DNA of 63,581 nucleotides, the filler included, from Platydemus manokwari (Eukaryota): NCBI GenBank assembly GCA_037951405.1. It is 6 parts of 6 records of this genome, joined end to end, with 100 filler letters (N's around TTAATTAATTAA, not from the genome) between each part and the next. Parts side by side here need not be neighbours in the genome. Positions count along the whole stretch, not along the records: positions 1 to 9,908 come from JBBMOY011190322.1; 5 more parts are not named here. The stretch is one strand, 5' to 3'. The notes beneath the pieces were generated by a model that was not told the origin of the DNA, did no database searches, and saw only the letters and a list, made by a program, of their open reading frames with translations. The translations under genes and the position numbers were made by a program. The number at the start of each line of letters is the position of its first letter. The first letter of the stretch is position 1. Shown one piece after another: positions 1 to 54,342 of this stretch.

Positions 1-719
1 CCATTTGGTCTTTCGCATTTCCCGTTAGTTTGCGGGTGGTATGCCGATGTGGTTAGCTTTGTAATTCCGAAAAACTGGTTTACTTGATTTATGATTTGAC
101 TTAGGAATTCGGTACCTCGATCGGTGAGTAACTTTTTTGGTACACCATATCGAAAGATTATTTCTTCGACAAAGATACGAGCTATTGTGTCGGCGGTATG
201 GTTTGAGATTGCGAAAACTTCAACCCATCGAGTAAGATGGTCGCAAAATACTAGAACGAATTTGTTCCCTTGTTTGGTGGTTGGCAGTGGTCCGACGACG
301 TCCATGGCGACAATTTCCATTGGTGCGCCTGGAGTTGGCATTGCCTTCATTGGTACCTTGAATTTCTTTCCTGTGTTCCGTCTGGTTTGGCATACCTTAC
401 ATGTTGTACACCATTCATGTATATCTTTTTTCATATTTAGCCAATAGTATTTTTGTCGGATACGGCTCATGGATTTCCTAGCGGACAGGTGTCCTCCTAA
501 GGTTCCGTCGTGATATTGTAGAAGTACTATGCTCCGTAGGACTTTGGGTAAGACGATGGGATGGTTTGTGTCTGTTTGATACTTTACGATATCGGCTTGG
601 ATAACAAATCTCCCTTGTTCTCCTTTGATTTGTTTGAGCTTTTTGGTTTCTGATGTAAGGTCTACTCGTTTCGTGATTTCTGACCATTGTTTGGTTTTGT
701 CTTCTATTGTTTTCACGAT
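1..719 (-). pseudogene. Integrase (HHCC zinc finger + DDE core), continuing past the window start
   Basis: Reading on in the RT/RH frame past the TAG at 720-722 gives HDGTLGGHL...YYWLNMKKDIHEWCTTCKVC (HHCC), IVAMDVVGPLP (D), LLTDRGTEF (D), TSAYHPQTNGKCER (E). Confidence 0.93.
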
Positions 720-2224
720 CTACATGATGTCATCGTCCTCTTTATGTAATGCTGCTATATCGTATAGGTTACTCAATGTTTGGTTAGCGGTGAGTACAGT
801 TTCTGTGGTGACTTCGTATTCTGTAGGATCGGCTCGGGACAATGCCTCGGCATTCCCGTTGGCTTTACCTTTTCTATAACACAGTTTGATATTGTATTGT
901 TGCAGCTTTAATGTCCATCTGATGAGTCTTGAAGCTGTGTCTCTATGTTGTAAAAACCATTGTAGGGGTTTGTGATCCGTGAGTACGTGTATTTCTTGTC
1001 CATATACGAACGTCCTAAATCTTTCTACAGCGTAGACGATAGCAAGGGCTTCGAGTTCAATTACAGCGTAATTTTTCTCGTGTGTTTTTAGACCTCGGCT
1101 AACGTAGGCTATTGCGTCCTCGTTTCCTTGTTTATCGATCTGTCCTAAGACGGCTCCTATTCCATATCCGCTTGCGTCCGTCATGATTATAAACGGCTTA
1201 CTCATATCCGGATGTCTCAAAATGGGTTCCTTGAGTAGCTGTTCTTTTAATTGGTCGAAGGCTTGCTTCTGCTCCTGTTGCCATTGAAATGGTTTATTCT
1301 TCTGTAACAACGTTGTGAGTGGAAGGGCTATGGCGACGCAGTTCCGTATAAATTTTCGATAGTAGTTGACTAGGCCTAGGAATTCTTGTACCTGTTTCAC
1401 CGTCTTCGGTGGTGGGAATTTGGCTACTTTTTGTGTGTATGCTGGATCAGGTTTTACTCCCTCTCCAGACACTACGTGTCCTAGGTATTTTACTTCTCGT
1501 TTGGCCCATTCACACTTTGTGGGTTTGAGCTTGACCTGCACTTCGATGACCTTTTGTAGTACTCTTTCGATGTCTTGGAGGTGTTCTGTGAGGCCATTAG
1601 AATAAATGATCACATCGTCTATGTAAGTTAGTGCGTGTTGCACGTCCATCAACATGATGTTCATTGCCCTTTGAAACGTGGCAGGAGCTCCAGTGAGTCC
1701 GAATGGCATGACCGTGTACTCGTACAGTCCTTTGCCGTCCGTGAAGGCAGTGATGGGAATTGATTCTTCATCCATCTCGATATTATTGTAACCTGTTTGC
1801 AGATCTAGTGCGGAGAATAGATTTGCTCCTTGTACTCGGTTGACCATATCGTCGATTAACGGCAATGGATAGTTGTCTTTTCTTGTCTGTTTGTTGACCT
1901 TGCGGTAATCGATACACATACGCATGGTGCCTTCTTTTTCTTGACTAAAACGATAGGTGATCGCCAAGGTGAGTTGCTTGGTCTGATTCTCCCTTGATCC
2001 AGCAGTGTTTGAATCTGTGTGGCTATTTCCGTTTCCATGGCTATTGGTGTATGGTAGGCTCGTTGGTCGATAGGGTTTGGGTCCATCAACTCTATCTTGT
2101 GTTTCATAATGTTGCATTTTCCCAGATCGTTTTCATGTCTGGCGAATGCCTCTGGATATCGATTGAGTAATACGGTTAGCTGCTTGCATTGTTCCGGTGT
2201 AATATCCTTGCTTTGGATTCGCAT
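720..2224 (-). pseudogene. Reverse transcriptase + RNase H (frameshifted near 1945)
   Basis: ORF 1856..2224 gives the RT start (GRIRPSNSPWRSPIVLVKKK). ORF 720..2117 continues MRMCIDYRK, LDLQTGY, YIDD (1614-1625), YLGH, then RNase H TDAS, ELEALAIV, TDHKPL, NAEALSR. Confidence 0.96.
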
Positions 2225-2269
2225 AGGCGCGTATAGTTTTCCTGTTCTAAAAGTACTGGTTCGGCTCTA

Positions 2270-2530
2270 AAAGGCTCTACTTTACCAAGTCTGGTGTTGG
2301 CATATAACGTGACAGGACTGTTGTTCACGTTCGCGATTCTGATCGGGATTTTCTCGTCTTGTGCGATGGCGATTCCATTTCCTATGGGTATTCCATATCG
2401 TTGGACAAACTCTTGGCTTGGTTCGAATACCAGTTCGGTTCCATCTGGTTGTGCTGTGTTGGCATAGTATATAGTTTCGATTCTTGGTGGGATTTCTCCA
2501 GTTTCTCCCACATAAATTTCTCTGTCGCCT
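2270..2530 (-). other. Degenerate dUTPase-like beta module between protease and RT
   Basis: IPPRIETIYYA...ELVFEP...GIAIAQDEKIPIRIANVNNSPVTLYANTRLGKVE follows the dUTPase strand pattern (I-x-V-x-x-x-N...I-x-x-G-x-R-I-A-Q-L); no intact catalytic motifs seen. Confidence 0.45.
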
Positions 2531-2589
2531 CGTCTTTTCTGTTTGGCGATGGAAATTAATTTCCCCGTGCTGCAATCGTAAACAATGTC

Positions 2590-2880
2590 TTTCAATTGCT
2601 TTATTGCGTCCTGTCCGACTACACAATGAGTTGGTGCCCACGGTGATACTCGGGCTTCGACGGTTAGCATCTGGTTGCAGATGTGTAGTCTACATGGTAG
2701 TACTCCTAATAGAGGCAGTTTTGTTCCGTTGATTCCTACTATGGGCAGTTGGTTCTCATCTTTAATGAGGTTCTGCATCTCTATGTGGTTTAGTATTTCC
2801 GGTCTGATGATAGTGACATCAGCGCCTGTATCTATTAGTGCCATTACTGAGTGGCGGTTAAGCTTTATCTGCATGAGTCC
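2590..2880 (-). CDS. Retropepsin-like aspartic protease domain inside ORF 2176..3690
   Basis: VMALIDTGADVTII (DTGA at 2821-2832), flap IVGINGTK, and C-terminal CVVGQDAI (ILG-x-D equivalent). Confidence 0.93.
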
Positions 2881-3329
2881 GTTTCGACCTGTACTGGCTA
2901 CGTTGACGTACTCTACCAATCCCCGTTGGTTTTGTCGTTTGATCCTTATGTCATCTTCCTGGTTGTCGATCATTGCCTGTAGCTCCATTGTAGGATAAGT
3001 TTTCCGTTTGTCATTTCCGGATTTCCCTACTGATTCCTTGAATTCCTGATCGTTTGAATCTCCTTGTCTGATTGGTACGTCTGGCTCGACTTGAACTAGG
3101 CGGTAAGGTGGTGCACTGACGGTTGGCTGGTGCCACTGGATGTCTTCCATGGGTATTCGTCTACCTTTTGGTTTAATTCTTTCTGTCCAATTTTTAAAAG
3201 CGTTAGAATATTCTTCATCGCTGTCGTCGTTTGTTGGCCAGGTTGGTTTCCGGATGATGTGTCGCTTTTCCTCCATCCACGTTTTCATTTGTTGTATTTC
3301 CCTTCGGTGTTGTGCATGTATAGAGTGGT

Positions 3330-5150
3330 CGGCGCAAGGTGGACATAGTACCAATAAAATTCTTCTGGTGCATCCGAAGATTCGGTATAATAAAAATGCT
3401 GTCATTGCTCGATGGAACACTACGTATAATAATGTACACGTGACGTAGATGCCCGTGCATCCGGCAAAGAATGTTCCAAACGTCATGAAGCTACCCCAGA
3501 TTTGGTACATGACATTAACGGCGGCTTTCTTGTAATGTTCGGAGGTAAACAGGTTTTCATAGTCTGGCGCACTCCTTGATCTATCATGATAAATTCGTCT
3601 GATTATCTCGGTAATGCCTAGATCCCTTAGTTGCGAAAACATTAACGCTCGTCGTGCATCTTCGATATCTTTAGGATTGTATAGTCGCATGTGAGTTTAT
3701 CAGTTCTAAACTGACACATCCCTCTATTACACTGAGATTTAGTGTCTGCACTGGTAGGTGTGGTAATCCTCTTGATGGTAGTGTCATCCATGAGTTCTTA
3801 ATTTTGTATAGTGGCGCGAAAAATGGGGTGCACGTTCCCTTTGTAGGCTTGGCGTTTGGCTCCAATAATATCCTGGTGATTGGAACCATGTATCTGGTTT
3901 TCCCTTGATACGTGACTTTTAATTCGTTTGTGCATTCGTGCCCGTGTGCCATCATGACTTCTACCTCTGTATAGCGAAACTCGTACCAGACTTCTCCATT
4001 TACCTTGCCATATTGTCCTTTTTCCATGATGATGGGTGTGATTAAGTCTGGGTTGGCTCTGGCAAATAACTAATCGGTTCCGTAGGATTTCTTTATCTCT
4101 TTGGCAAATGGCAATTAGTGTTTCCTGGTAGATCTCGAGTAGCTGTGACTGTAAGTCATGGTAGAGGAAGTCAAATTTATTGTAGCTAGCTAGTTTAATG
4201 TCATTCTTGTGGAGGGTTTGCGCATTTTCCAGCTTTTCCTTGCTGTAATGGACACCTTCGTAAATAGTACTGTATAGTATCGTAGCACACTTCGTGATTG
4301 GTGCTTTGGTTACAAGCCGGATTGCGTCGGAAGACTTGTTTGACATCAGTATTGTAGGTACTGCTCGTTCTTTCACGTTTGAGTGCTCCTTGGCTCCTCC
4401 TAATTGTTTGTTAGTTACTTGGGTGCCTGTTCGTTTCTCATAAACTAGCTTGGTACTAGTTATGGCAATGAATGGTCCGCTCTTCAGTAGCGTTAGTCCA
4501 CAGTGGTCTGCTTCAGGTGGGCGGTAGCTGAGTACTCCCCCATTGACTCTACAATTTCCGTGTCGTAAGTGACACTTTGGGTATTGTGTCATTAATCCGG
4601 TTTTGGCATCAAATGTCGCCTCGAAAAAGTGTAGCTCCACTCGGTAATCTTCATTGGTTATTACCCAGGAGGTAGAGACTCCGTCCCGGAACTTGGTTCG
4701 TCCGTTACATTCTCCATTATGAGCTATTTTTCCACCTCAGGTTACTGTCTCTTGCGTGATCATATTTGGTTCAACTTTTAGGCTTAATTCAGTGTCAATT
4801 CGCAGTTTCTTGGTTACGAATGCACCTTGGCAGTCGGTTGGTGCTATGTTCAGCATTCGTGGGATTAGTTTAGCGTCTAGTATCGCTATTCTACTATGAT
4901 ATCCGCAGAGGTACTCGAAAGTTGCTACCTCAACTCGGCATTCTTGTACCATGGCTCGTATGAAGTCATTTTCTTGGTAGGTGTAATAAGTGTCCGGTTC
5001 ACTTTTCTGTAGCTGGTACGGTTGCACAGATGGGCAATTTATAAAGTCCACTAGAGAGTAGATATTGGATATCTCTGCTTTTCCGTAGTCATAGGCTTGA
5101 AGTAGAGTGGTTTTCCCTATTAGACTCATGATTAGTTGGATTTTGAGTTG
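3330..5150 (-). pseudogene. Chuvirus/Jingchuvirales-like envelope glycoprotein, split by one stop (4737-4739) and two frameshifts (~4045, ~3690)
   Basis: Colinear blocks match the chuviral G pattern as I recall it: AYD(Y) for GYDC; YSLVDFINC; ECRVEVATFEYLCGYHS; GKIAHNGECNG; ASYNKFDFLYHDLQSQLLEIYQETLIAIC; GQYGKVNGEVWY; ECTNELKVTYQGKTRYMVPITRIL; LYNPKDIEDARRALMF; IWGSFMTFGTFFAGCTGIY, followed by a hydrophobic TM segment (3415-3501). Confidence 0.85.
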
Positions 5151-6390
5151 TCCTACTAAATCGTATCCTTGGTTGCTTGGGTCAGCTTTGTCGGTTGCTT
5201 TATGATTTAGGTTTAAGGCGGTCCATCAACCTTTGCCTTCTAATCATTGGATTAGGTATCTTTGGCATGTCTGTGTTGCTTGCATGACGACATCTTTAAA
5301 ATGACTCGGTTCCTGATATGATGAGGTGACGACCTGTTGTATCAGGCATGTGAGGGCTACTTTTACGCGTACCAGTGTCAGCCGTCCTGAGTTAGTTCAG
5401 CTATAATGGTACGTGGGTTGGCATCTCCCTGGTTTAGTATCTGTTTCATCTTTGGCAGGTATCTTTGGATTGCGCGTATAACTCCTTCGTACCCTTCGGT
5501 TTCTCGGTTTGGGATCCGTAAATTATGCGGTTCTAACCCATGTGCTAATGTTAAAAAGATTGTTTTGATATCCGTGTCTCGGGTATCGGGGTTAGCGTCT
5601 GCGATTTTTTTCAGGATTTTCGCCTGGCTTCTGGCGCAAGTTTCCTCTTTTCGTTCCTCCATGAGGGGTGGTACCCTCTCTGAGTTAGGTGGTCTACCTC
5701 TTTTCCGTTTGTTGAACGCTTGTGGTTCGGTTTCTGGTTCGTGCGTGATTTCCATGGTGGGCTCTATCTCGTTTTGTGTTTGGCCTTCTACGGGGATATT
5801 CCTTTCGAATTCGGTGAGGTACTCGACGATTGGTGTGTTTAAAAATGCATCCAAATCGACCTCGTAGTTTGGCTGGATCTCGTTTGGTGGATCCACATTG
5901 ATTGGCTCCATTCCGGGTTCTTCTGGTTCGGGCGGTTTCAGAAGTGTGATAGTGGCTCATTTCCACTGGTCTACCATAGGTACTGGTATTACTTTAGCTG
6001 TGGTGATGTGCCCAGGCAGGCATCCTACATCGACCAAGTATTCATCGTCGTCTACAGGATGTTCCCATATTGCTATGATGAATGGTTCCCGTACGGGTTG
6101 TGCTTTCTTGATGGCGATTCTCAGCCGTTTTACTTTGCAATAAATAGATTGCTGTGTTTCCCATGCTCCGAATTCTGGAGTGTGAGTCTGTATTGTGACG
6201 GAAAGCCGCGACAGTGGGCTGCGCCTCATCAGATGTCCGTTTCTCTGTAGAAGTAGTTAAATTTCTACTTGGTACTCAGAAGGCTTTCTAAGTTGCGTTA
6301 CTAGCATTAGTGTTACTTTTTCTATGACATCGGTTGGCACGGTGACTTGGATTATGTCTCCTAGCATTTTCTTGATCCATGGGGCATCAC
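5150..6390 (-). pseudogene. Uncharacterised coding region X between nucleocapsid and glycoprotein
   Basis: One frame from ~6390 to 5378 with internal stops at 6257-6259 and 5957-5959 joins ORFs 5957..6229 and 5378..5911. A shift near 5390 enters the glycoprotein frame (stops at 5244-5246 and 5226-5228). Contains an acidic Pro/Glu tract and KRKRGRPP. Confidence 0.65.
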
Positions 6391-7520
6391 CCTTTCAAGT
6401 TCCGGTGGTAGACGTTCTGCCTTTTTCTTTTCTTCCTTAGTCCTCTGGATTGTGACAAGGACGTTTTCAGTTGTGATAGCTGTGGTTGGCTCTGAGTCAC
6501 CGGCAAGGTGCTTTTCCTCTGCGGTCATTACTCGGTCAGCTCCTGTGTTGGCTGGTGAAGAGTGACTTCGTTCAGCACCTGTATTGGCTGGTAACGAGTG
6601 GTTTCGTTCAGTGTACTCCGTGACAGGAGTAGTGTTGCTGGGGAATGTTCGGGTTCCATCCCCTTCCTCTTGGTAATAGAACATTAGTGTGACAGCCCTT
6701 GATTTCTCTGGTATGGCGTGTGCCATGAAACATTGTTCCTGTTGGTTGACCCGTTCAATCCTGTGCTTCTCAGCTAGGTATTCCTGTTCTAGCTGCTGTA
6801 GGAGGGTCCTTTGTCCACCAGATGTGAGTTTCTCGGCGGCGATGAACGCGTTTTGCGGTCTGTTTTCAGGTTCCTGGGTCCTCGGGTTGACCCGTTTTAT
6901 GTTACATGTTTTGGCTAGATGTCCATAGCGCTGGCAGTTGTAACACTGTATTTTTCCGACTGTATTGACTTTTTTCTTTTGAAGTTGTGCCTGTTGTCGG
7001 CAAACTTTTCCTATATGTCCTTTTCTGTTCCAAAGCTCACACTGTAGGCTAGTGATTTTGAATGCGCTCGTGATGTGGTTGTTGCGCCCACATCGTTGGC
7101 ATTGTACGTCTTGAATGGACGGTTTTTTAGTCCATGTCCATGCTGTCCGCATTGGAAGCAATTCAGGGTTGGTTTGACTGGATTGTTCCTCTGGTAGTGC
7201 TGTCCCTGTGATTCGGGGATCTGTATGGCTCCTTTTGCTCTGGTAAGACATATACTTATTCTTGATTGACCTTTCCTATTTCGATGAGTCTGGCTTTGCG
7301 TAACAGTTCGTCAAAATCATCTCCCACGTGCAGGCTGAGTGCTGCTCGGATTGGTGGGAGGAACCCTTCCCAGAGTGTGTCTTTTAGGTCATATTCTGTG
7401 TTTGGCGGCCACTCTTCTCTGGGTCCATATGCTCGCTCGGCCAAAATAGCTAACTGGTGTGCAATTCACCGGCATGTTCTTCTGGTAACTGTTTCCTTTC
7501 CATATATTTCGATAGTAGAA
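6361..7520 (-). pseudogene. Gag (capsid C-terminal part + three zinc knuckles), 5'-truncated and frameshifted
   Basis: MHR-like RKQLPEEHAGE/AHQLAILAERAYG and capsid-like LWEGFLPPIRAAL...LLRKARLIE. Knuckles: CQRCGRNNHITSAF (last C lost), CELWNRKGHIGKVC (second C lost), CYNCQRYGHLAKTC (intact). Confidence 0.88.
6536..6607 (-). repeat. 36-bp in-frame tandem duplication in Gag
   Basis: Encodes ERNHSLPANTGA / ERSHSSPANTGA. Confidence 0.85.
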
Positions 7521-9908
7521 GATTATCACGGATCAAGAATCAGTAAATGACCAGTATGATTTTTAAAAGACCCGACAATAAGATAAAATTTTGTAAAATA
7601 CTGATTCATATCATTCACCGTTGTATCTATAACTGCAGAGGTTTGACCACAAAACCTTGAAGGTAATTAGTTTTTCTCCTATAAGTGACGTCTATTTAGC
7701 GTGAGCTTCATCCAGAAATTGTAAGTCTCAGCATAAAGTTCAGTTTATAGTGCAGTGCTGCAATAACTTAATTTTTATCCTTTAATTTATCTTTAAATTG
7801 CATTTGTGTCATTTAGCAATAAAATTTTAAATAAATAACCTTAGTTATTGATTGGTTGGTGATTTTCGATCTTAAATTGTCACTAATCACAACATCAACA
7901 ATCTTGTGGTTGGGACAAAGTCGGATATCATATGAATCGAATTCGATTGAAAATTAAATCAATTCAATAACTAATGCTTCGTAATCAATAAACAAAATTG
8001 TCAGGGAAGTGATAATATTTATCCATTTTCGTCAGATTGAGAGACAAATATAAATGAAATAATGGTAAATCACATTATATCTGGAATAAAATGAATACTT
8101 ATTAAATTATCTACGTCATATTTCGATTCTAATGAAAGTTAATTATATCAAAGAAAGTTAAAGTGCTTCATTAATCCTTCATTAACTATCATAATATGCA
8201 AAATGCTGTCACATTTATTAAAGTACAGTTATAATTTCAAATCTTTTATAAACTGAGATAGTATCATTCAAACAATTAATATATCCACGTGAAACATAAA
8301 GTACACAGTAACACCCTAAATCATACTCAATGTTATTAAAAGCGTTGTTTAGAAATGAACCAATTAATATTTAGGCTATTCATCGAGACTGGGTATATGT
8401 CCCCCCTAATATATGCAAGAATTAATTAGAAATTATTGTAAAAAATTGCCCGAATGATAATCATACGTTGGACAGACTACTTCTGTAAATAGTTTCATCA
8501 CATCAAGGCACTGAATGTCAGACAGATCATTATTTATTAATTAATTACCGTCAGAGAATATAAACAAAATAAATAAATGCTCGCCATGCTGAGATGTGCA
8601 CTTAATATTCACTAAAGTTACAATATAATAAAGTTTTATCTGAAAATTTAACAAAAATATTTACGAAATAAACGATATACATGTGCAGTACTACCAATCA
8701 TTTACTAGATAAAAGCACAAAAATATTTATTTATGAATATATAATATTTCATTTATCCCATGAAATCTGATGTCATTCGTTTTCAAAATTGCACTTTATT
8801 AAACAATCAAATTTTAAACGGTTTCGATATCTGTTGTTCATTGAAGAAATTTATATTTGTAAATAAACGAAGCAGTGATGAACTTAGTTGATGAAAAATG
8901 TTCCCATATTGGAATACAATATGTTACTTTATCAGTCATTAAAATGTGGAACATGAATTGAAGTGATTGAAAGAATATTATCTTTATCCCAAAATACACA
9001 AATAATTATTCACGGAACAAAGTAAAATCAACATTTGATGTGAAAGCGATATTTATTAAAGAAGATCTGGTAATATTGGCTGGATAAAAGAGTCGCTGTT
9101 GAATAAATTGGAATTGATAACTTCAAATGTCCAGACGTTAAATATAATTTTTATGTCCGTGAGGAAGAATCGTTGAACATATAACTGCTGTAATATATTA
9201 TTTCCTATTATATCAGCATTATTGACTTCAGGATAAATCTCTCTGGAGTATGAAATCTGAGAGAAATTCCATTTGTAATGGATTTCAAATTGAGCTACGA
9301 CTATGATAGATGAAAGTGGCTAAATAAGATAATTAATTAAAAATAATAATTATATTATAATTAACTATAATTCGTATATAAAGTACATATTATCAACTTG
9401 TTTGAATAAATGAAAAATATTAAATAAAATTGTCCAAATTTTTTGTTGAAATTCATTAGATGGTGACTTTGTTGGAAATATTTAATTTTAAATTATATTT
9501 TCATGTTTTAGAATCTCAAAGTACATACACACTAGGCTACGCCTTTTAAATAGATTCCGCGCGTTTTATTGTTTTATTCAAATAAACTTTATTATTTCAT
9601 TTTGTTTAAATTCAGTACAGCATATATAGCATAAGTTATACAAATTATTCATATTTGTACTTATATATTTGTAAATAGTATAACGCATTGTTATGCCTTT
9701 CTTTATACATCGTTTCATAAGACTTCACCTTTTGAGTTAGGTTACTAATAATTTTTGGATTAATCATTATGGATTAATGAATTACCATTAGATAATATAA
9801 ACAAAATAATTAAATGCTTGTAGCACTGAGGGTTAAACTCGATATTTATTGGAGTTACAATAAAATAAAGTTTGGTGAGAAAATTTAACAAAATGTTGAT
9901 GATGATGG

Positions 9909-10008
9909 NNNNNNNNNNNNNNNNNNNNNNNNNNNNNNNNNNNNNNNNNNNNTTAATTAATTAANNNNNNNNNNNNNNNNNNNNNNNNNNNNNNNNNNNN
10001 NNNNNNNN
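9909..10008. other. Artificial contig linker N44-TTAATTAATTAA-N44
   Basis: Identical 100-bp structure recurs five times; the 12-mer has stops in all six frames. Confidence 0.95.
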
Positions 10009-12653
10009 AGACATTTTCTTATAGAAAATAATGATAATTTTAATCGAAAATAGATAATTTTAATAAGATTTAGAGAAATTAATTATAAAAAGCGAATATC
10101 AATTAGGAAATTGATAACGTGTTCAAGCAGAAATTATATCTTTAACATCTTGTCAAATTAACGTTTTCTCATTCAGTAAAAATTATTCCATGTACATTAA
10201 TTATTGAGAGAGCTTCACTTTAAAATTCCTATCTTCAGAAATTATTTTTAGAAATCTGTTTCTTGCTGAGGTATTTTTTCAAATGAATATCTTTATTGAA
10301 AAATTACAGTTTTAAATTCAACGCAAAATTAGCGAAATTATCGAATGTGACGTTTATTATTTTGATGTCTGTCATTCCCTTTCAAATGATATTTATCGGA
10401 TTGTTAACAGTATTGGCTTAGCGAAACAAGAAAAAGAGTCATCATGTAAAGACATGTTCTCAGAATAACACATCCACTGGGATTTACAGTTTAGCCTTTG
10501 GTTGCTCCTAATCACGCTGCTGAATTTCATCCAACTGGTGAGTTCGACTTTCCCTGAGAATTAGTTTGATGAAATAATCAGTGTATGACGACGAACTAGA
10601 AAATGGTATGAATTCCTACACAATTTGGGATTGATTCATAAAATTATATTTGTAATCGAAAAGAATTAAGAGAGGTTAGAGATCAATTCTTCTTTTAGAA
10701 CTTGGCAATATTTTTTTTCTTTATCCTTAGCTTATTTTAGGTTGGATTTGTACGGGTTCCACTGATGAGTGGCGTCGATGGATTGTATGGAGCTATTGTA
10801 ACGGAAGTTTTAGATTGTTTTTAAAATATAAACACTGAAAAAGAAACATTCTTACTTGAATATAAGGGCTAATTAAATTTAAATCGCGCTGCGTTACAAT
10901 GATGTTAAATATGAGCTCTCGATAATGAATATTGCCCTAAATAAAAATGCTATATATGAAAACATGTAGTATTAACACACTAGTATATTATGTATTACAA
11001 AAAATAAAAAATCCCAAGTCCAAAAATGAGAGTATTTTTCAATCGATCTTGTTGTACAGGCCAAATCCAAAATCCATTGAAATTGACCGAGGAAATACAT
11101 ATTAACAAACTCACACTTATTGATTGCAAAAAATCTACAAGATTACAATTCCACAAATGAGTTTTGAATAAATAAAATTGTGTTTGTCCCGAGATTGAGT
11201 CGATTAATAAACGCCTGGATCAATATTAAATTGGCTAATTTCTTTTTTGAAAAGATGCCTGTTAGAGACACTGAATATTTGAATATGAATGAAATTGACG
11301 TTGCTTGAGTGAATAGACTACTTTGATTCGAATGCAATGCATGTTAGCCGTATCTACGTCGTTTAAATAATCGAAATTATTGATTTCACTCATTATTAAG
11401 CTTTTATTCAAAATTTATTTCATTAAGACATTACTGGAACGAATTTTTACGAGAGTTTTCAAATAATTGCCATCATTATCAGAATTTGAATTTTTAAATA
11501 AACGTATGATTTATTTAATTTTCATATGACGTTCAAATTTCGTGTCAACAATTCAAAAATTTTAATCACTATTTTAATAGTCTTTATGATTATTTTGTTG
11601 GTAGGTGTGTTGTGTGCTCAATGTACCACTACCTGCTTTCGTTTGTATTTTTTGTGTGGACCACCTCACTAAATTTATTAGGCTTATTATTTATCGTTAT
11701 TATGTGTTTCCTCAATGCACTTGTGATAATTTTTACCTTCGTGGTATTATTTAAATTATTATTGATACATTTATCTTTCCATCAATTTCAATTTCCATTA
11801 AAGAAGATGAACAAAGGTGTAGTCTGACATTCAATACATTACCACATGCTGCACTTCATAAACGATAAATAAAGCAATTGATGGTTATTTGGCCATTAAA
11901 ATTACACGAAATTGATTTGGACTCGAAATGTTTTGGATTGATTAATTTTGTATTGATAAGTTTAAAGATTGATTTAGAATTTACAAAAAAATTTACGGAT
12001 ATTTAAATTTTTAATATCATGATTATCGATCTGCACTGGATCATCACTCAATATAAACACCAATATTAACTCAAAACAATTTCCATAAGTCTGCTATGAA
12101 AATAATGCTGTATTTTTTGTGAGTTCGCTAAATTTTACAGGCTCAATTTAGTTTGCTCGTATCATAAACCGCATTGCACTGCTAGCAACTTATTATAAAA
12201 ATAATTTCGATTTTTACAAAGCTTATAACCTATTGAATTCTCTTTTTCTATTAAATTTTTTCCTTTCATGTATTTTTTCTGTATTTTTTAAGACATTTTC
12301 TTTTATTTCTTCTCGAATCTACGCATTTACTTCAGTTCAGTATGACACTGTAAGAATTAATTCTACATTATTAAAAAGCATTATTCTGTTTTGTATTATG
12401 TGAAAAATTATTAGGATTTATTTAGCATATCTACAAATATATTACTTTGCCGGTATTATAAATATCTGTTTTCTTACAAGGCTTGTAAATTCTTGATAAG
12501 CTTCACCGTTTTTTAAATATTTATTTATTTTTTAAGATTTCATGATGGTTGTAAGCCACTACTATTTAAAAGAACGCATCGAAAACAAACTGTAAAAGAC
12601 TCGACATTCAATTCTATTTAAAGACAATTATTTCAACAAAATAAATAAAATTT

Positions 12654-12772
12654 AATATCAAATAAAATTCAATATCAAATAAAATTCAATATCAAATAAA
12701 ATTCAATATCAAATAAAATTCAATATCAAATAAAATCTAATATCAAATAAAATCTAATATCAAACTAAATTC
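12654..12772 (+). repeat. 17-bp minisatellite (AATATCAAATAAAATTC) x ~7
   Basis: Direct tandem copies, decaying at the 3' end (AATCT variants). Confidence 0.9.
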
Positions 12773-15700
12773 AAATTCAATTTGATATTCTCACAATGGT
12801 AATACCTGATTTTATAATTTTTCATAACTTAATTAATATTGTTGTGTTGGGCATCATTAGGAATCAAGCTTATCACTAATGCAGGTGGGTTCAGGTGTTC
12901 AGAAAAGGTTTAGTTGACTAAATACAGTCTCGATTTATTCAAAATATAAATTGCTCAATTATATAATATTCAATATTTTCCCCAAAGATCGAAACTATGA
13001 TTTTAAACTCAATGAATGCGAAAAGAACGGATTCAATACAAAACAATGTTATTATTATTATTACAATGATGGCGTGATTATTGTAAATTTATGAACAGAT
13101 GAAAATTCTTACAACTTTCCTTACAACTCACCATTTAAGAAAACTAATGGGCGAGCTCTTTGGTAGCAAGAGAGACAAACAATCCTTATTAGTTTCTGAT
13201 ACAAATATAAATTTTAATAATATTATGTCTGACGGCGCTTAAATAGTTCTGTTACAGGGCAGGATCGTCTTCTCAATATCAGCCCTCAGTTTACAAGAAG
13301 ATAGAATCGCAATCTCAAATCCAATCCTCCTATCAAAGCCTGCAACAGTCTCACAAAAAAGCTACAATCCAGATCCTATTGGAAAATGAATATCGACGAA
13401 TAATAACTTCATGTAATCTATCTAGTGTGACTTTACTTTCTATCTTTATTTTATGACTCTTTGTTTGATGTATAATTGACTTTAATTTGTGTGGAAAATT
13501 TTTTAATTTTATTTTAATGAAAAAATAATTGATTTACGAAAAATCGATGTATTTAATTTTATTTTCGATTTGTTTTATGCGGAATGATATAATATATTAT
13601 ATAATATATTATTTAGGCGAGATTTATAATTTAGGAGAAATAGATATTTGTTGAAAAATGTGGGCGGGCGAAAGGGAAAATTGAAATTAATAATGTAGGC
13701 TGATTTATTTTTAAATAAAATTATCAAAGTTGGAAAAAGAAAATAATTTTAAAATCCAGGAAAAGAAAATAATAAAAATTTGATTATTCATAATCAGCAT
13801 AAGGAAAATAGCATATTAGCATCATGTTAGCATTAGGAAAATTAGAAAGTTCACTTACAGAATAATTCTAACGAATTCTTCCTGACACAATTCTGAGACA
13901 AATATTTATTGAATTATTGAACTTCAGTAATAAATTATAAAGTAAATAAATTTAATTTTATGGATAAAGCATTCATATTTACATAAAATCGGAGATATTT
14001 AACATTTATATATCAGCACAAAGGAGGTTCGATATCATGCCCTTCCTTTGTTGACCATTGTTTTGAAAATGCGCGTCTAAATAAACTGTGATTTCGAGTA
14101 ATTGGAAAATTTAGTTTGAGTGGGTTTTCCTTAAAGAGGGAAATAAAATGGTTTATTGCATTGTAGTAAACGACTTTGCACAATTTGGTAAACATGAATA
14201 AAAAATATTGACGTCATTTGTGTTATTATTTTGATTATCATTATAACTCACACATCTACCGGATTGACATCCCGCATCAACCGATAGTACAAGACTCACA
14301 CTAGAAATAAAATATAAGTCAATCTATTGATTAAATAAAATATTATTCGTTTGATGTGCTTGTTTTCTGTCTTACGTGTTAACAAAAAGGTATTCAACAG
14401 TTTCTTATGTGACTTTTAAGTCATCCATCTTCTCTCTTAGAATTATAATTGTCTTTTCTTATCTTCAGGATTTCTTCTAGTTGCTTCCCTTATATCATTA
14501 AATACATTTTCTGTCTCCGGCATAATGACCTCAATTTCTTGAACACATGATCGATTACTATTAAAGTTTCCTTTGCCTGACAAGTTAATGTCTGTCAACT
14601 ATTTTGTAACAGTTCCTTTGTAATTTTCTGATCGATCATGATCTGTACAGCCTGAAAAAGTTTTGATTCCTTTGTATTATGCTTGTGCTACGAATCGACA
14701 GTATTTTCTAATATAATCTGATACAATATAACACGAATTAATGATAAAATACAAAGCCACACATGTATGATGACCCCAAAAATCAATAAAAATATGTAAA
14801 AGAATACAATTAGTTATAAAAGTAAAGTGAACAACAATAAAAATAAAAATGTAATAAGAAAATAAATAATAATAATAATTGGAAATAAAAAATAAATGAA
14901 AATATGTGACATTTAAAACAATATTTAATAATTTTCGTAAATATTAAACTTATTTAATAGTTAGAAGTCGAAAATAACAGTTTTCAGTTATAAACGGAAG
15001 AGAGGAAAGACAATAGAAAAGATTATACTGTGATCTGTTTTAACTACTAAATTAATTACATATTAGCGGTGAGCTAGGACTAGATTCTGTGCTAAAGTAT
15101 TGAGAAGCCGTATTATGAATTTGTCCTAGTTCTATTAAATTAATTTTATATGGGACATATTCCTTTATAATATTGATATTCGACGCAGAGTTTGACTATA
15201 ATATATCTTAATCAGAAGATATATTTGTTTTTGCTCAGTGCGTATTGGAATTAGATTAGGAATCGGATAAAGTAATTCGATTGAGTCTAGTCGTTAAGTT
15301 ATAACAGTTCTAAACATAATGCATAAATATTAAAAATGAAATATATTTAAGTTACAGGTAAATGTGAAATCATAAATACCAGTTTCTTTATCAAATATAA
15401 TCACAACCAACGAGTCAGATAGATAATCATTTCATTAATTAAATCTCTATTAACAAATTATATGTAGAATCAAATCAGATTGAATATATAGTCAAACTAT
15501 TTAAAATTAATCACCTTAAATTATGTTTATTATTCAAATTTTGATTTCGTGATAAATACATTTAAAAATGTTTAAAATATTTTATAATTGTTTAATTTTA
15601 AAAAATTAACCAATTTTAATCTTTAAAATTATTATTAAAATAAATATATTAAAATTATATTATTTTAAAACAACATTACTAGTACTAATTAAATGATTAT

Positions 15701-24691: not shown

Positions 24692-24791
24692 NNNNNNNNN
24701 NNNNNNNNNNNNNNNNNNNNNNNNNNNNNNNNNNNTTAATTAATTAANNNNNNNNNNNNNNNNNNNNNNNNNNNNNNNNNNNNNNNNNNNN
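24692..24791. other. Artificial contig linker N44-TTAATTAATTAA-N44
   Basis: Same 100-bp spacer. Confidence 0.95.
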
Positions 24792-24863: not shown

Positions 24864-25486
24864 TATTTGATAAATAATACAGAATATATTATAAATATCA
24901 ATTATATCAACAATTGTTAATCATGTATGGTGGATCAAAACTGATTTTAAACATATTTTCGGGTTCGGAGCCTTTAAAGTTAGAAATGTCAACAGCTCTT
25001 GTATTAAATAACAGATATTGATATAATGTCTATAATTCTATTCTGGTTGTTTCAGAATCAGCTAGAGATCAATAATTACCTAATGATAATACCCACTTTA
25101 AGTTATTATTAAAATTGCCTTGCTTTTGTTAGCTTTAAATGTTTTGGCAATAAACTCTTGAACGAAATATATATATACTTTGCTATGGTATATTAATATT
25201 TGCGATTCGATTCTATAGAGATCTTAAATAGCTCGAAGATATAAATAGTTTTTAAAATAAGATCAGATTCAATAAAATTACACAAAAGATATGATTGCCT
25301 TTATTCTAATTCTGAGAACCAAATTTTATAAAATAATTTACTTTAGGTTTTTATAAAATATTGTATTTATTGTGGTGAAAAAATTATTCCACTCAACTTA
25401 ATCGAAATAGCTTTAAATTTAAATTATTCTAAAACCTCAGAATTTTTATTGAGATCTTACATTATATTTGTAAATTTATTTCTTAG

Positions 25487-26639
25487 ATTTCGAATATTTA
25501 ATGGGTAGTTTGGCGTTTATTCAAAATCCCGAAAGAATAAAGCAGTTCTATTCGGAACTATTTCAAAAAATGCCAGAAAATCTTGCTGATAATAATTATG
25601 ATAATTACTGCATCAACAACGAAAATGAATCAATGGATTGCTCTTTAGTGGGCAATTTCATGACAGAAAATATCATTCGATCTCTCTATTATCAACATTA
25701 TCTTAATGAATTAATCTCTATGTTCAGTGAGCAAGTCTGTGCTATAAAACAGGAAACACCAACCGACCCATTGTTGACACTTTTCACCAGTGGTATTAGA
25801 AACATAACCCAGTTCTTCAATCATGATCAGATATTTAAGAAACTTTATATCTATAATAAAGTTGAAGATTTCCCGGTAAGATTATTTTCTGTAAAATAAA
25901 CCCAGTGCGTTAGAAAAATAAATCGATGAAGGTTTAAAAATTATTTGGTTAAAGATTTTTGTGTGATCCACGTTTAATGTCTATTTTAAAATAATATGAT
26001 TTGTTAAATTTCAAATTTTGTTAATAATATGAACATTTTATAAATGAATGTTAGATCATATATAACAGAAAAACACAAGACGCATGAAGTACTACTGTAG
26101 AGTTGTGGTTTTTAAGAAATCAATAATCCATCTCATTCTAGTAGATTAATGATAATAACGCTTGCGGTGTAAAAATTTTTAATAATTGTGTAATTACTTG
26201 TATGGGATCACTTTACTCAGGTATCTGATTTATGGTTGATTGAATAAACTTTAAAACTCATTTGAGTCGACACATTCTTAGAGAATGCTATATTACTATA
26301 TTAGAAAATGCTGGTAATAGATAAATGCAACATGTACAATTAATGAATTTTTTCAGCTTATGGTTCAAAAACACGAACAAGAATTCTATCACAGTATTTT
26401 CCATTGCCCTGTTGATAAAACCGTTGTAACAGGTGATAATTCCGTTCTAAGACTCAAATGTGGACACGCTATTTCAAAAAGTGCTTTCAACCAGTTAACG
26501 AAAAATGAACAAAAAACGTAAGTGATTTATATAAATGTATGATATTTATTTAAATAGCTTTCCAAATTATAGAAAAATGAAGTGTCCTTATTGTCCCACA
26601 GAAACCAAAACAAATGAAGTATTAACTCTTGTTCTCTAA
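25487..26639 (+). CDS. RMND5: CTLH/GID complex RING subunit RMND5/GID2, 3' exons only: 25487-25875, 26357-26517, 26573-26639
   Basis: FEYLMGSLAF, DPLLTLFTSG, EDFP | YHSIFHCPV...RLKCGHAISKSAFNQL...| KMKCPYCP. Consistent GT-AG phases; TAA at 26637-26639. 5' exons not found before the linker. Confidence 0.9.
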
Positions 26640-28074: not shown

Positions 28075-31000
28075 TTAATTGTTGATATTTCCACCTCCGC
28101 CTCGAATTCCTTGGCTGGCTTGTTGTGGTACGGAACCAGCACCTGGAGCATGACCTGCTCGGATTGGTTTGACAATTTGTGGGGCCGGCCCTCTTCGAGC
28201 AAGGTTTCGTTGTCTCACAGCCTCTTTAATTCTATCAACTTCGTGTTGATATCGTCTTCTGTCTCGCATAGCTCCTTCCTTGGCATCTTTCAATGCTGAT
28301 TCAAGGGCCTTGACTCTTTCCGTTGTGCTCTGTAGATTAAAAAAAAGAATTTCAGTATAAAATATTATATTATGATATAAAACTTCAATGATATTCCAAT
28401 GTGTATATATAGTGAGATATTATACAAACTAGATCAATTCTGTGGTATTTATGAATTAAGATTGCGTCAAAAAAGCCATTACAATATTGTCTTAATGATA
28501 AGAATAAGATAAAATTATTATTAAAAATACACAGATGACCAAATGTACAAAATAGGGAAAATTTTTAGTAATTAAGAATGTAATAAAAAATACAAATATT
28601 TCCCGTGTATTTGATAGATAAGAAATAACAATTTATAAATACGTATGTAATCAAATATGAGAAAATGTTTTATTGGACAAATAGAGAATAAAAAGTTGTT
28701 ATAGTTAGGCATCAGATTCAATTCAATGAACTAGATACGTATAATCAATAATAATGCACAAATTGAAGATTCCAAATCCAAAAAAGCTAAAAATCTATAT
28801 ATATGCATGAATCTCATATCAATATAAAATAATATTTCACAGCATGTCATAGAAAATTATAATGGCCAATTGATCAATTCAGATATTATGAACAAATAAT
28901 AAAACAAACTTTTAGTCTCTTTTCCAGTTTTGGTAACTCCAATCTCAGATCGGAATTATCCCTAACTAATTGTTTGTGAACTTTAGTGAGTTGTTCCAAA
29001 TTCATTTCTAGGAATTGAATTTTTTGTTTCTGTACTAGATTTCCAGAACGACTATCATCATCGTCGTCATCCTCTCCAATAATACCAGAATCCCTATTGA
29101 CACCACGTGTCGACTAAAATGATGAACATTTTTAAATGAATTATAAATATAGAAATAATTTTCTTCCAAAAATACCTTTTTCACCCTGTTGCTGAGATCT
29201 TGGACAAATAATTTACGTAAATTATGCAAAGTCTGTAATTCCTTCATCACGGTATCTTCAAGGCCTTTGAGATCTTGTCGAGCTTGTTCTCGCTTTTCAG
29301 CAGCTTTCTCCAGGCCTTCCAATTTTGCTGCTTTTACTTCTCCTTCTGCTACTACCTTTTCATATTCTTCCTTCAATTTCTCGTTTTGAAAGGTCAAATG
29401 ATGAATTTTGCTAAAAACATTAAGGAAAATAAAAATCTGGTGAAACATTTCATTTGAGGATTACTCTTTCATTTCTTCACTCATGCGTTGTTTCTCGTCC
29501 AATTTATCTCTCAGCTCTTTGATCTGCTGAGAATATTGTTCACTTTGGCGTTTGAATTCTTCATCTAGTTTTGACTTGATATCCAATTGTCCAGCGAGTA
29601 TTTCAGCTCGATTTTGAGCATTTGCATTGACGATGAGTTGCTCATTAGCTTTAAATTTGGAAACTTCGGCATTTAATTGATCGACTTGTTCTTCCAGTTT
29701 CCGTTTCTGTGCCTCAGTGTCATCGACTTTGTTGTTAAGTGTGTTCATTCGCACTTCAAACTGATTATCAAAGCATGAGATTCAGATTTATTCGATATAT
29801 ATAATGAATGTAAGTACTTCTTGGACTCGCAATCTCATGTCTCGCAATTCCTCATCGTTCTTTTTCAGGCTTTGGTGTTGTACTGTTCTTTCTTCTTCCA
29901 ACTGTTTAACGCGAGATTGTGTTGTCTTAGCCTCGGTCTTCATTTTGCTGATGTACAATCGGATAACTGTGAATTCCTCATCAATCTTTTCGATTCCAGC
30001 AAAAGATGGTTTCTATAAATCCAAAATTAATTACAATTTAGTTAATTGGAATACGGTTAATATATTTAATTTATCATATTTCTCTTACGCTTAATTGGTC
30101 ACTCATACACTCTCCTACGTCTCCGAGGTCTTTGATCAAGCTATTGAACATTTCTGCATATTTCTTTTTCTGAGTAACATAATTTTCTTTCAATTGTTGC
30201 AATTCATTTTCTTTGCAATTGATGCTCTGTGTTTGCTGATTGAATTGTTCCTGCATGTCTTCTAGTTCGTGGGTTCGATTTTGGATTTCTTGAATCTTTT
30301 GATCATAATTCATTGCTAATTCTTCAAGAGCCTGGAGAACTTCCTTTACTTCTTCTTTACTTGATTCATTTTCACTCTAAAATTTAGATGGTATAAAATG
30401 TGATTAATTTAGTAAATAGTGGGTGAAACTTGTAATCTGTTGAATTCTGCTTGAGTTCTTTCTTGATCTTGTCTGAGACTCTTAATTAATTCATCTTGTT
30501 CTTCAATTTGTTGCTTAAGTCGTTCAACAAGTTGAGCTTGTTTATTAATTTCGTCATCTTTGTCGTCCAATAACCGATATAACTCATTAACCGATGCACT
30601 ATCACCGACTTGAGCTGTAATTTTCACAAACTTTAACAACAGATTTCATCAAAACTATTTTTAAAATATTTAATTTTCAATAGATTTTTCCATGAGAAAG
30701 AAAATTTTCAATGATTAAATCAACACGTAACCCCTCCTCCAGGATCATTTATAATGAATAAATAATAAAACTCGATCTTATAATATTGATATGGTGTATA
30801 ATTCAAGAGTTATTTGATAGAAATATTTCATTACAAAATCAAACCTATGAATCCAATAAAAGATTACCAAATGTTTTAACTGCGATAATGAAATTATTTA
30901 TATTTCAAACAAATATGCAAAACAAATTGTTGATGCCTAGATTATTTATATATTTCAAGCTCAGCTTCGTAATTGCAGCATATTGTGATTAAAATTTGAT

Positions 31001-31734
31001 TAAATATTAATAAGCTAAATAGTTAATGATTATATTGAAGCCTATAGAATAGCTTAGTAACAGATTCATCTTGAAAATGTCAATCAATAGTCAAATAAAC
31101 TTCGAATGAAAACCATAACATATTAATGTTTTCATAAATACAATGAATATTATTGAATAATAAAAGTTAAACCATTGGTAAAATTAACAAACCTGGTCTT
31201 GGTTTTTGACTAGAAACATCAGGATTTAATCTATTTAAACTATCAGTTGATGCAGAAATAGATCCAAATTGGCTATTAGTCATATCTTTCACTTCTTCAG
31301 CTATTTGGTTATATTGTGATTCAGTAAACCATTCACTTTGATTGACCTTTTCACCTGAAAATCAATAATCATTGAATTGTTTAACTATTTGTGTTAATAT
31401 TTAAAAATTATATGAAAGAAAACATATTTTTTAATGAACCTGTTCGCCATTTCTTAATTTCTGCTTCTAAATTGATGATAATGGCTCTTAATTGTTTATT
31501 ACGTTGTTTTTCTTTTTCATATCTTCGTCGCCATTCTTCTGCAGTCAATTCCTCGTTGACACTAACACAATTTTTGATTGTTTTTGCTCTCATACCAAAC
31601 ATCAATGTTGATTTTGTTTCTGCATCATTGAATTCGGCAGGAGAACAGCAAATTACCATGGTGGTTCTTGCATTTCCACCGAGTGATTCTTGGAGAATCC
31701 TAGTTAACTTTGAATCTCGATATGGAATATGAGC
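28075..31734 (-). CDS. KHC: Kinesin-1 heavy chain, 3' part; exons 31734-31440, 31354-31193, 30614-30430, 30376-30089, 30012-29818, 29760-29465, 29410-29176, 29113-28910, 28329-28075
   Basis: [24 protein letters not shown]...[10 protein letters not shown], neck [92 protein letters not shown], tail QIVKPIRAG. All junctions GT-AG and phase-consistent. N-terminal motor exons not found before the linker at 34073. Confidence 0.96.
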
Positions 31735-34072: not shown

Positions 34073-34172
34073 NNNNNNNNNNNNNNNNNNNNNNNNNNNN
34101 NNNNNNNNNNNNNNNNTTAATTAATTAANNNNNNNNNNNNNNNNNNNNNNNNNNNNNNNNNNNNNNNNNNNN
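34073..34172. other. Artificial contig linker N44-TTAATTAATTAA-N44
   Basis: Same 100-bp spacer. Confidence 0.95.
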
Positions 34173-34559
34173 AAATTACTGTCGGTGGTAACGAGGTGTT
34201 ACCAAAAATAGTAAGCGGAGGCTGGCTCAGTAAAATATAAATACTGAGTACAGGATAGACACAACACAATCACATTTACCCAAGGAACAGAATATCTTCA
34301 ACGGAGATAAACAGAATTTCATATCGAAACGGAATTGCAATTTCAGAAGGGAACGTAACGAAAACAATAGTCAATTCGCGAGGAATTATTTATATAATAT
34401 ATTTGTTCAAGGATCTATATTATCAGAGTGAAGATTTTTCCTGTTTTGTCAACATCGATAGTAAGTATTTAGTTTTTGTAATTATCATTTTTCACTTAAA
34501 TAAGCTAACATTTGGTAAAGATATTTTCATAATTAAATAATTCGATAACATACAACATT

Positions 34560-43484: not shown

Positions 43485-43584
43485 NNNNNNNNNNNNNNNN
43501 NNNNNNNNNNNNNNNNNNNNNNNNNNNNTTAATTAATTAANNNNNNNNNNNNNNNNNNNNNNNNNNNNNNNNNNNNNNNNNNNN
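43485..43584. other. Artificial contig linker N44-TTAATTAATTAA-N44
   Basis: Same 100-bp spacer. Confidence 0.95.
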
Positions 43585-54242: not shown

Positions 54243-54342
54243 NNNNNNNNNNNNNNNNNNNNNNNNNNNNNNNNNNNNNNNNNNNNTTAATTAATTAANN
54301 NNNNNNNNNNNNNNNNNNNNNNNNNNNNNNNNNNNNNNNNNN
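54243..54342. other. Artificial contig linker N44-TTAATTAATTAA-N44
   Basis: Same 100-bp spacer. Confidence 0.95.

Follow-up and report, generated by a model that had tools for sequence, protein, structure and literature searches.

We consider it very probable that a stretch of Platydemus manokwari DNA (63,581 nucleotides in six joined parts, hereafter the window) carries a decayed, 5'-truncated Ty3/gypsy element with a glycoprotein gene between its Gag knuckles and its protease, belonging to a family whose intact members are encoded in one frame and whose glycoprotein, a predicted gB-like fusogen, likely aids movement from cell to cell. On the minus strand of positions 1-7500 the order is Gag knuckles, a spacer, a glycoprotein gene of ~590 codons, protease (PR), reverse transcriptase (RT) with a YIDD motif, RNase H (RH) and integrase (IN). 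The membrane anchor of the glycoprotein is joined in frame to the protease, the layout is family-wide, and this copy is decayed. It is very probably a further member of the published GAG-ENV-POL group with gB-type envelopes.

The Metaviridae order PR-RT-RH-IN was recovered with Pfam, the domains downstream of the glycoprotein being RVT_1, RT_RNaseH, RT_RNaseH_2, Integrase_H2C2 and rve, all on the minus strand. The aspartic protease (2590..2883, minus strand), with its DTG motif, matches gag-asp_proteas (E 1.8e-7) and RVP (E 2.7e-5) as residues 272-369 of the piece 3696-2179, an open frame that it shares with the glycoprotein anchor, with no stop between them. The RT and RNase H (723..2240, minus strand) match RVT_1 at E 4e-35 and RT_RNaseH at E 2e-38, with frame changes near 2250 and 1935. 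Both are of Ty3/gypsy type, as indicated by the RT_RNaseH families and by tree neighbours that are gypsy-type polyproteins. Among solved structures, Ty3 is the best match to the window RT (E 1e-82), followed by a caulimovirus-type polyprotein (2e-55) and retroviral RTs at 1e-26 or weaker. The integrase (1..722, minus strand, with a stop at 722) has an H2C2 zinc domain at 548-375 (Integrase_H2C2, E 3e-20) and a core at 326-33 (rve, E 2e-13); it is truncated by the window start, so the 3' end of the element falls outside the window. A conserved domain between protease and RT (2240..2529, minus strand) matches 9 of the 21 relatives searched and occupies the same place as the dUTPase-like domain of the planarian element Burro. 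It has no Pfam match, and a dUTPase identity is unsupported. The Ty3/gypsy backbone and the pol order with YIDD proposed in the earlier note are upheld by these domains, the best solved RT and the RT tree neighbours. The grouping with BEL/Pao that the note named as evidence against its reading was not seen in the domain content or the best solved RT; the RT tree holds no BEL/Pao rows.

The glycoprotein gene (3330..5160, minus strand) is no longer open: it has a stop at 4739, and its frame shifts near 4065 and again near 3700-3745. Four successive frame pieces nevertheless match the Monjiviricetes_fusion family PF24664 colinearly with the profile: 5225-4740 (profile 11-129, E 4e-9), 4736-3801 (238-357, E 1e-8), 4069-3674 (352-457, E 6e-14) and 3696-2179 (478-614, E 2e-15). 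A profile built from the glycoproteins of four relatives scored 78-145 bits against these four pieces alone among 1,344 stop-to-stop pieces of the window; the next best piece reached 6.5 bits and 5,800 shuffled pieces no more than 7.0. The ectodomain is Cys-rich; of 14 cysteines that the relatives' glycoproteins conserve, it keeps 12. One hydrophobic segment in the gene, at ~3474-3415, passes the membrane-helix threshold and is the anchor. Around 5156-5100 lies a signal-like segment, which this copy has in weak form (Kyte-Doolittle 1.09). A Cys-rich ectodomain of ~600 codons with a C-terminal transmembrane segment between knuckles and protease, as first noticed in the earlier note, is present, and the coordinates given there for it are correct.

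Modelling of the relative P0124, rather than of the window copy, predicts that the glycoprotein is a class III fusogen resembling gB. The P0124 ectodomain, 27-35% identical to the pieces of the window copy, gave a model with pLDDT 89 and pTM 0.72 from an alignment that included the window pieces. Its top structural match is HSV-1 gB (Z 10.1, rmsd 7.8, 426 aligned), and every match from rank 1 to rank 11 is a class III fusogen or a domain of one. A deep glycoprotein profile searched against the PDB likewise returned gB as its sole target, at a best E of 0.005. The PDB profile search from a 6-row alignment gave no matches, and an earlier model from 6 rows was unusable (pLDDT 41.6). Together with PF24664 membership, the model agrees with the class III-like, chuvirus-family glycoprotein that had been expected, and a lack of any profile or structural match, which would have spoken against it, was not seen.

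Upstream of the glycoprotein lies a conserved spacer of ~1.2 kb (5230..6360, minus strand), absent from the earlier note, that separates it from the knuckles. The spacer contains several stops, an AT-hook-like motif at ~5700 with counterparts at the corresponding position in the relatives P0124, P0251 and P0297, and a conserved domain of ~85 aa at 6256-6008 that matches P0251 (E 5e-12) and P0124 (E 2e-7). A ubiquitin or SUMO identity for this domain was considered from a likeness by eye and found no Pfam, PDB or Atlas support; a second spacer piece had no Atlas match. The gag itself (6364..7465, minus strand) is truncated and frame-broken, with three knuckle-like motifs, one of them a complete CCHC at 6945-6904, and the end of a capsid-like region. 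Within it, the piece 7275-6364 matches zf-CCHC (E 7e-5, Pfam), and the knuckle region matches knuckle regions in 7 of the 21 relatives searched. The piece 7465-7259 found no match in Pfam or in the search of relatives, so its capsid label is positional.

The 5' edge of the copy falls inside the gag region (7460..7510, minus strand). At ~7500 the GC content drops from 0.44-0.56 to 0.24-0.32, and summed contig depth falls across the edge from 413 to 46 to 13. A contig of depth 13.1 spans 7435-8327 without differences, and sibling contigs diverge behind 7462 and 7509, continuing with different letters. Summed depth is 233-1,489 over 1-7500 versus 12-33 over 7501-8700, values that we do not take as copy number. 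No long direct repeat was found in the window and no LTR, primer site or target duplication is visible in this copy, so its LTR status is assigned from the coding domains. The copy is dead: it has stops and frameshifts, it has no 5' LTR, and its 3' end is cut by the window. Because of the stops within the spacer, any original single frame for gag and glycoprotein is unreadable from this copy.

Relatives do have a single frame. P0124 consists of 3,735 aa in one uninterrupted frame with the order Ty3_capsid (weak, E 0.011), CCHC, spacer, hydrophobic segment, PF24664, anchor, PR, RT, RH and IN; it is colinear with the window element, with matches at the knuckles, spacer, glycoprotein, PR, RT and IN. 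P0063 also runs from gag to pol in a single frame, and the nematode endogenous retroviruses of Sacco and colleagues reportedly have a continuous gag-env-pro-pol frame. The 16 best glycoprotein matches among 1.84 billion representatives scored 346-860 bits. Domains were scanned in 13 of these, three short fragments being left out, and in 11 the protein continues past the glycoprotein into protease or RT domains; the other two have the glycoprotein alone. Hydrophobic segments flank the glycoprotein on both sides in most relatives, some carry ankyrin repeats, and lengths reach 4,844 aa. The gag-env-pol order suggested in the earlier note is thus a trait of the family, as the colinear P0124 and the 11 relatives indicate. 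A word-based search with the P0063 glycoprotein against shorter proteins yielded 7,014 candidates and none at E 1e-5; a search of metagenome contigs with the RT piece gave 51 pattern matches, none confirmed.

Published elements come close to this layout. Chary and Hayashi (eLife 2026, PMC13524379) report GAG-ENV-POL errantiviruses with HSV/gB-type ENV from Nematoda, Bryozoa and Platyhelminthes. These share with the window element a Ty3/gypsy pol and an env between gag and pol, and with its family a gB-type fold (predicted here) and signal or membrane segments on either side of the ectodomain. They are intact, uninterrupted ORFs being the rule for inclusion, and some have annotated LTRs, whereas the window copy is broken and truncated; relatives such as P0124 do have uninterrupted ORFs. 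None of the words "polyprotein", "immunoglobulin", "fibronectin" or "ubiquitin" occurs in the main text of PMC13524379, which therefore does not use those terms for the spacer domain or for the second membrane protein of the relatives. In the planarian element Burro (GYPSM1), env lies in frame between gag and protease within one polyprotein (Arkhipova and Yushenova 2019, PMC6431247). Like the window element and its relatives, Burro has Gag, 2-3 CCHC knuckles, env before the protease and a further domain separating PR from RT. The window element has conserved domains at the places of both the SUMO-like domain (before env) and the dUTPase-like domain (PR-RT) of Burro, though library searches give them no name. 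Burro is a giant with cargo domains and the window element is much more compact, with no BIR, BCL2, MATH or ankyrin Pfam match in the 12 window pieces scanned, the ~1.2-kb spacer included. Burro env matches mononegavirus fusion proteins and is likened to gypsy Env and to baculovirus and paramyxovirus fusion proteins (PMC6431247); it may belong to a different class from the gB-like fold found here. The nematode endogenous retroviruses of Sacco et al. 2022 (J Gen Virol), as cited in PMC13524379, are a metavirus with a captured RNA-virus glycoprotein and ENV before POL. Anakin, a mosquito BEL/Pao element with a chuvirus glycoprotein (Dezordi 2020, PMC7642597), is another LTR retrotransposon carrying this glycoprotein family. 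Its backbone is BEL/Pao, whereas the window element has no Pao-type Pfam family and has gypsy-type RNase H and an H2C2 integrase. The mosquito BEL/Pao Chuviridae-like glycoprotein has also been found beside gypsy pol (PMC13524379). Troyka (PMC12440569) was set aside as not relevant.

The origin of the glycoprotein was approached with two FastTree phylogenies. These hold no published element's sequence, so membership of a named clade is putative. In the RT tree (window plus 118 of 120 matches), the window falls in a 10-tip clade with support of 0.997 that includes P0029 (a cluster mate of P0124), P0052 and P0057; support inside it is poor, 0.23 at one node. In the glycoprotein tree (147 rows, most of them unnamed and picked with a profile of this clade), the window falls in a 23-tip clade (support 0.971) with the same relatives. 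This clade consists of polyprotein-embedded copies on a long stem (0.42), apart from the stand-alone glycoproteins, a chuvirus G among them. In the view of the earlier note, a gypsy element independently acquired a Jingchuvirales glycoprotein and gave rise to an enveloped lineage not yet described; this scenario now seems very unlikely. In its favour, the G of Tacheng tick virus 4 (Chuviridae, E 1e-78 to the profile) is the sole named virus among 10 stand-alone matches looked up, the closest relatives include no named retroelement, and GAG-ENV-POL elements are not monophyletic according to Chary and Hayashi (PMC13524379), which makes several origins possible. Yet the window glycoprotein is only 17% identical to that chuvirus G (316 columns) compared with 26-37% to its 19 closest relatives, and its long-stemmed clade does not nest beside the chuvirus row. 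By these sequence comparisons, the glycoprotein is only distantly chuvirus-like, though it is placed in PF24664. A BEL/Pao-linked match, P0336 (DUF5641), is 16% identical and also falls outside the clade. Since the rows were selected with the clade's own profile and are mostly unnamed, the donor can be neither named nor excluded. The independent capture is thus not borne out, and neither is the novelty of the lineage: both the order and the envelope type are already in print, with gB-type envelopes in Ty3/gypsy gag-env-pol elements in PMC13524379 and env before pol in PMC6431247.

Insertion of chuvirus-derived sequence into an ordinary gypsy element as a single event is hardly credible here. 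Chuvirus-like glycoprotein fossils of arthropods often adjoin gypsy fragments without clear capture (PMC10084718), and such a nested insertion had been named in the earlier note as an outcome that would undo its reading. It was not seen: the glycoprotein is joined in frame to the protease, 11 of 13 relatives have pol behind it, intact one-frame relatives refute it, and the RT and glycoprotein trees give matching clades. The composition is also even, with GC of 0.43-0.48 spread over gag, glycoprotein and pol versus 0.27 in the host flank and A-richness likewise even, and many diverged copies extend across the glycoprotein. It is also improbable that the clade (~20 protein clusters, none a named retroelement) is an undescribed enveloped gypsy branch with a host outside Nematoda, Bryozoa and Platyhelminthes, the phyla reported so far. 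Its members would make one membrane-spanning polyprotein, with Pol recruited through the fusion-protein tail, an additional surface protein of Ig/fibronectin-like type after the integrase, and a gB-like glycoprotein that is a deep sister of chuvirus G and not a capture.

Our preferred reading, a gag-env-pol gypsy family with a gB-like fusogen, suggests how an intact member might work. Gag, glycoprotein and Pol would be made as one polyprotein. An internal signal sequence before the glycoprotein would direct the ectodomain to the ER lumen, with signal peptidase releasing Gag and spacer on the cytosolic side. The anchor would act as a stop-transfer segment, leaving PR-RT-RH-IN cytosolic and tethered to the glycoprotein tail until the protease cleaves. 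Such a tether could deliver Pol to the membrane where budding occurs, with no need for a frameshift or for splicing of an env mRNA, and trimeric glycoprotein on the particle may then fuse it with a neighbouring cell, germline included. The window copy itself cannot go through this cycle. The earlier note's idea that the element was possibly once infectious is an inference. Alternatively, the same layout could provide a glycoprotein for cell-to-cell fusion, particle exit or the blocking of related viruses rather than for infection by free particles, which we regard as rather unlikely. The single frame implies one glycoprotein per Gag, unlike in retroviruses, and this counts for such a role. So do the solo chuvirus-like glycoproteins of mosquitoes, which have been proposed to be antiviral (PMC7642597), and the statement of Chary and Hayashi that the transmission mechanism of most such elements is unknown (PMC13524379). 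Against it, the full ectodomain, the conserved cysteines and the anchor are retained among relatives that share only 25-35% identity, and always with Gag and Pol, which fits a part in the element's own spread.

To a group described between 2019 and 2026, the window contributes a single dead copy, along with intact relatives that are still unnamed. From the intact relatives with one frame, membrane topology can be predicted. The broken window copy is a poor subject for work on the threading or cleavage of a mid-polyprotein envelope. The known range would be extended if the host belonged to a new phylum.

Run X1, which could be the very sample behind the window and does not count as independent, contains 958 contig pieces of mixed identity across the element, glycoprotein included, and one contig links pol to glycoprotein sequence. 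The window also contains a kinesin-1 tail exon, with protostome-type matches at 59-85% and, among the 120 matches listed, no close named relative. No tRNA gene was found in the window.

Over its first 7.5 kb, the window has a GC content of 0.45 versus 0.27 in the remainder, and the coding strand there is minus. A Pfam scan of 12 stop-to-stop pieces gave, from 5' to 3', a CCHC knuckle, four consecutive matches to the Monjiviricetes fusion family (PF24664) in profile order, an aspartic protease, reverse transcriptase (RT, with a YIDD motif), RNase H, H2C2 and the integrase core. The protease shares an open frame with the last glycoprotein piece. Using a profile from the glycoproteins of four relatives, we recovered those four pieces alone out of 1,344 in the window, at 78–145 bits compared with at most 7 bits in 5,800 shuffles. 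The copy retains 12 of 14 conserved glycoprotein cysteines and has a single membrane segment at about 3474–3415. Together, these results bear out the gag-glycoprotein-pol arrangement that the earlier note had placed at 1–7520.

Proteins related to the element were found with both its RT and its glycoprotein. The RT piece was searched among longer proteins (8,000 best-sharing candidates scored, best 120 listed), and at least 10 of the matches listed are 50–56% identical over RT-RNase H. PF24664 precedes the protease in three of the ten RT relatives, P0052, P0057 and P0063. Cluster look-up added P0123 and P0124, the latter running in a single frame of 3,735 aa from Gag through integrase and further, and aligning with the window at the knuckles, spacer, glycoprotein, protease, RT and integrase. 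Against 1.84 billion representatives, the glycoprotein profile matched 2,976 proteins at E 0.001 in two score tiers: 16 at 346–860 bits, then proteins at 310 bits or below, mostly stand-alone and about 650–700 aa long. Pol domains lie behind the glycoprotein in 11 of the 13 top-tier proteins scanned, so the layout is not a one-off nested insertion, the reading that the earlier note had set against its own. The two exceptions are P0246 and P0255; P0246 and the RT relative P0035 lie on contigs of equal length, which are probably one contig. Of 10 stand-alone matches whose records were checked, a single one is a protein of a named virus, Tacheng tick virus 4 (Chuviridae), two are clusters that include endogenous copies from insects, and the names of the other seven are uninformative. 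Tandem aspartic-protease-like domains lie between glycoprotein and RT in P0393 (six stretches), P0251 (four), P0249, P0256 and P0034, and P0393 and P0065 contain ankyrin repeats. Clade members P0248 and P0056 are labelled bacterial metagenome-bin proteins (Flavobacteriaceae, Turicibacter) and are probably mis-binned animal DNA.

We next consider the fold, modelled on the ectodomain of P0124 with a 132-row alignment (pLDDT 89, pTM 0.72); a 6-row alignment gave a failed model. Among 48,161 solved chains, the best structural match was the herpesvirus fusion glycoprotein gB of HSV-1 (Z 10.1, rmsd 7.8, 426 aligned), ahead of further gB entries from herpesviruses (Z 8.3–9.4), thogotovirus Gp, vesiculovirus and rabies G, and baculovirus GP64. 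Class III fusogens fill ranks 1–11, and unrelated folds begin at Z 3.8. Used as a sequence profile, the 132-row alignment matched 33 sequences in the PDB, every one of them gB (best E 0.005). The predicted structure of this relative agrees with the class III-like fusion fold that had been expected.

An RT-RNase H tree (FastTree) of the window and 118 of the 120 listed matches, with two dropped for short coverage and no BEL/Pao rows, placed the window inside a 10-tip clade with support 0.997 and weak inner nodes. The best solved RT match is Ty3, and the proposed Ty3/gypsy backbone is supported by the pol domains, this match and the tree of gypsy-type matches. The glycoprotein tree (FastTree, 147 rows, 329 columns) comprised the window's N-terminal piece, 144 of 150 listed matches and three cluster mates; six short fragments were omitted and one further row was dropped for gaps. 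Here the window falls inside a long-stemmed 23-tip clade (support 0.971) of polyprotein-embedded copies and some short fragments, in a row set picked by a profile of this very clade, which favours a split from stand-alone rows. The window glycoprotein is 26–37% identical to the 19 closest among the matches listed; identity falls to 17% for Tacheng tick virus 4 G and to 16% for a copy linked to BEL/Pao. Given this placement and these identities, the glycoprotein has long travelled with this gypsy clade. By its Pfam family (PF24664) the envelope is chuvirus-like, but a chuvirus is no more than a possible donor, given the 17% identity and the separate clade.

Chary and Hayashi (PMC13524379) describe gB-type ENV in GAG-ENV-POL order in several clades of Ty3/gypsy elements from Nematoda, Bryozoa and Platyhelminthes, and a Chuviridae-like glycoprotein also beside gypsy pol. 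They cite Sacco et al. 2022 for nematode metaviruses with a captured RNA-virus glycoprotein and ENV ahead of POL. The layout with this envelope type is therefore already published, contrary to the undescribed lineage proposed in the earlier note, and the window element is a real, further but dead member of this published kind. The earlier note's view of chuvirus G capture matches that of Dezordi 2020 and 2023 (PMC7642597, PMC10084718), which cover the mosquito BEL/Pao element Anakin and, for insects, describe no clear capture by gypsy elements. Unlike published members, the window element has a compact spacer; in it lie a conserved domain of 85 aa and an AT-hook-like motif, both common to the window and two or three relatives. 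A SUMO-like identity for this domain, as in the planarian giant gypsy element Burro, was not confirmed in Pfam, PDB or Atlas. Many relatives also differ from published members in extending past integrase with a signal-like segment, ectodomain and anchor; the window ends before that region. This second in-frame membrane protein is present in P0124, P0123, P0034, P0035, P0038, P0039, P0065, P0248, P0249, P0253 and P0393. The C-terminal part of P0123 has an Ig_3 match (E 9e-5), and the tested C-terminal part of P0124 has no convincing Pfam match.

Intact members have a hydrophobic segment before the glycoprotein and another at its end. The simplest reading, we infer, would be one polyprotein threaded twice through the ER membrane, with Gag and spacer in the cytosol, then an internal signal, a lumenal ectodomain, a stop-transfer anchor and, again in the cytosol, PR-RT-RH-IN. 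Signal peptidase would release Gag, and the element's own protease would release Pol from the glycoprotein tail. Such a scheme would not need env splicing and would bring Pol to the budding site, with the trimeric fusogen taking particles into other cells.

The window copy itself is dead: the glycoprotein is broken by a stop at 4739 and changes frame twice, pol also changes frame twice and has a stop at 722, and gag and spacer contain several further interruptions. Its 5' end is truncated within gag at about 7460–7510, its 3' end is beyond the window, and no LTR is visible among within-window repeats. The junction with host DNA is bridged by a difference-free contig at depth 13, and sibling contigs continue with other letters. 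X1, the sole sequencing run listed and possibly the source sample, gave 958 contig pieces on 1–9000 (135 at 99% identity or more, 215 at 95–99%, 289 at 90–95% and 319 below 90%), with depth not read as copy number. Since these mixed-identity pieces span both glycoprotein and pol, and a single contig of 3,585 nt combines pol pieces with a joint into the glycoprotein, the host carries a diverged multi-copy family with the glycoprotein-before-pol layout.

The largest "repeats" of the window are artefacts, because they are N runs with a central 12-base stop-rich linker (about 9909–10009, 24692–24791, 34073–34174, 43485–43584 and 54241–54343), read as assembly gaps. There is also a two-copy 131-bp repeat at 8526–8656 and 9763–9893 (78% identity) and a 17-bp tandem array at 12609–12795. 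A minus-strand Cys-rich frame at 57656–57958, without a Pfam match, resembles by eye the C-terminal zinc domain of piggyBac transposases. A probable host exon on the plus strand at 25474–25899 has weak CTLH and DUF4847 matches below curated cut-offs, and a minus-strand exon at 21827–22159 matches UPF0240 (Pfam E 6e-7), a family also named NDUFAF4. The host is an animal whose kinesin-1 is of protostome type, without a close named relative among the 120 matches listed. The exons of this kinesin-1 heavy chain lie on the minus strand at 28075–31734 and extend further (Pfam Kinesin E 1e-19), with a tail matching human and fly KHC.
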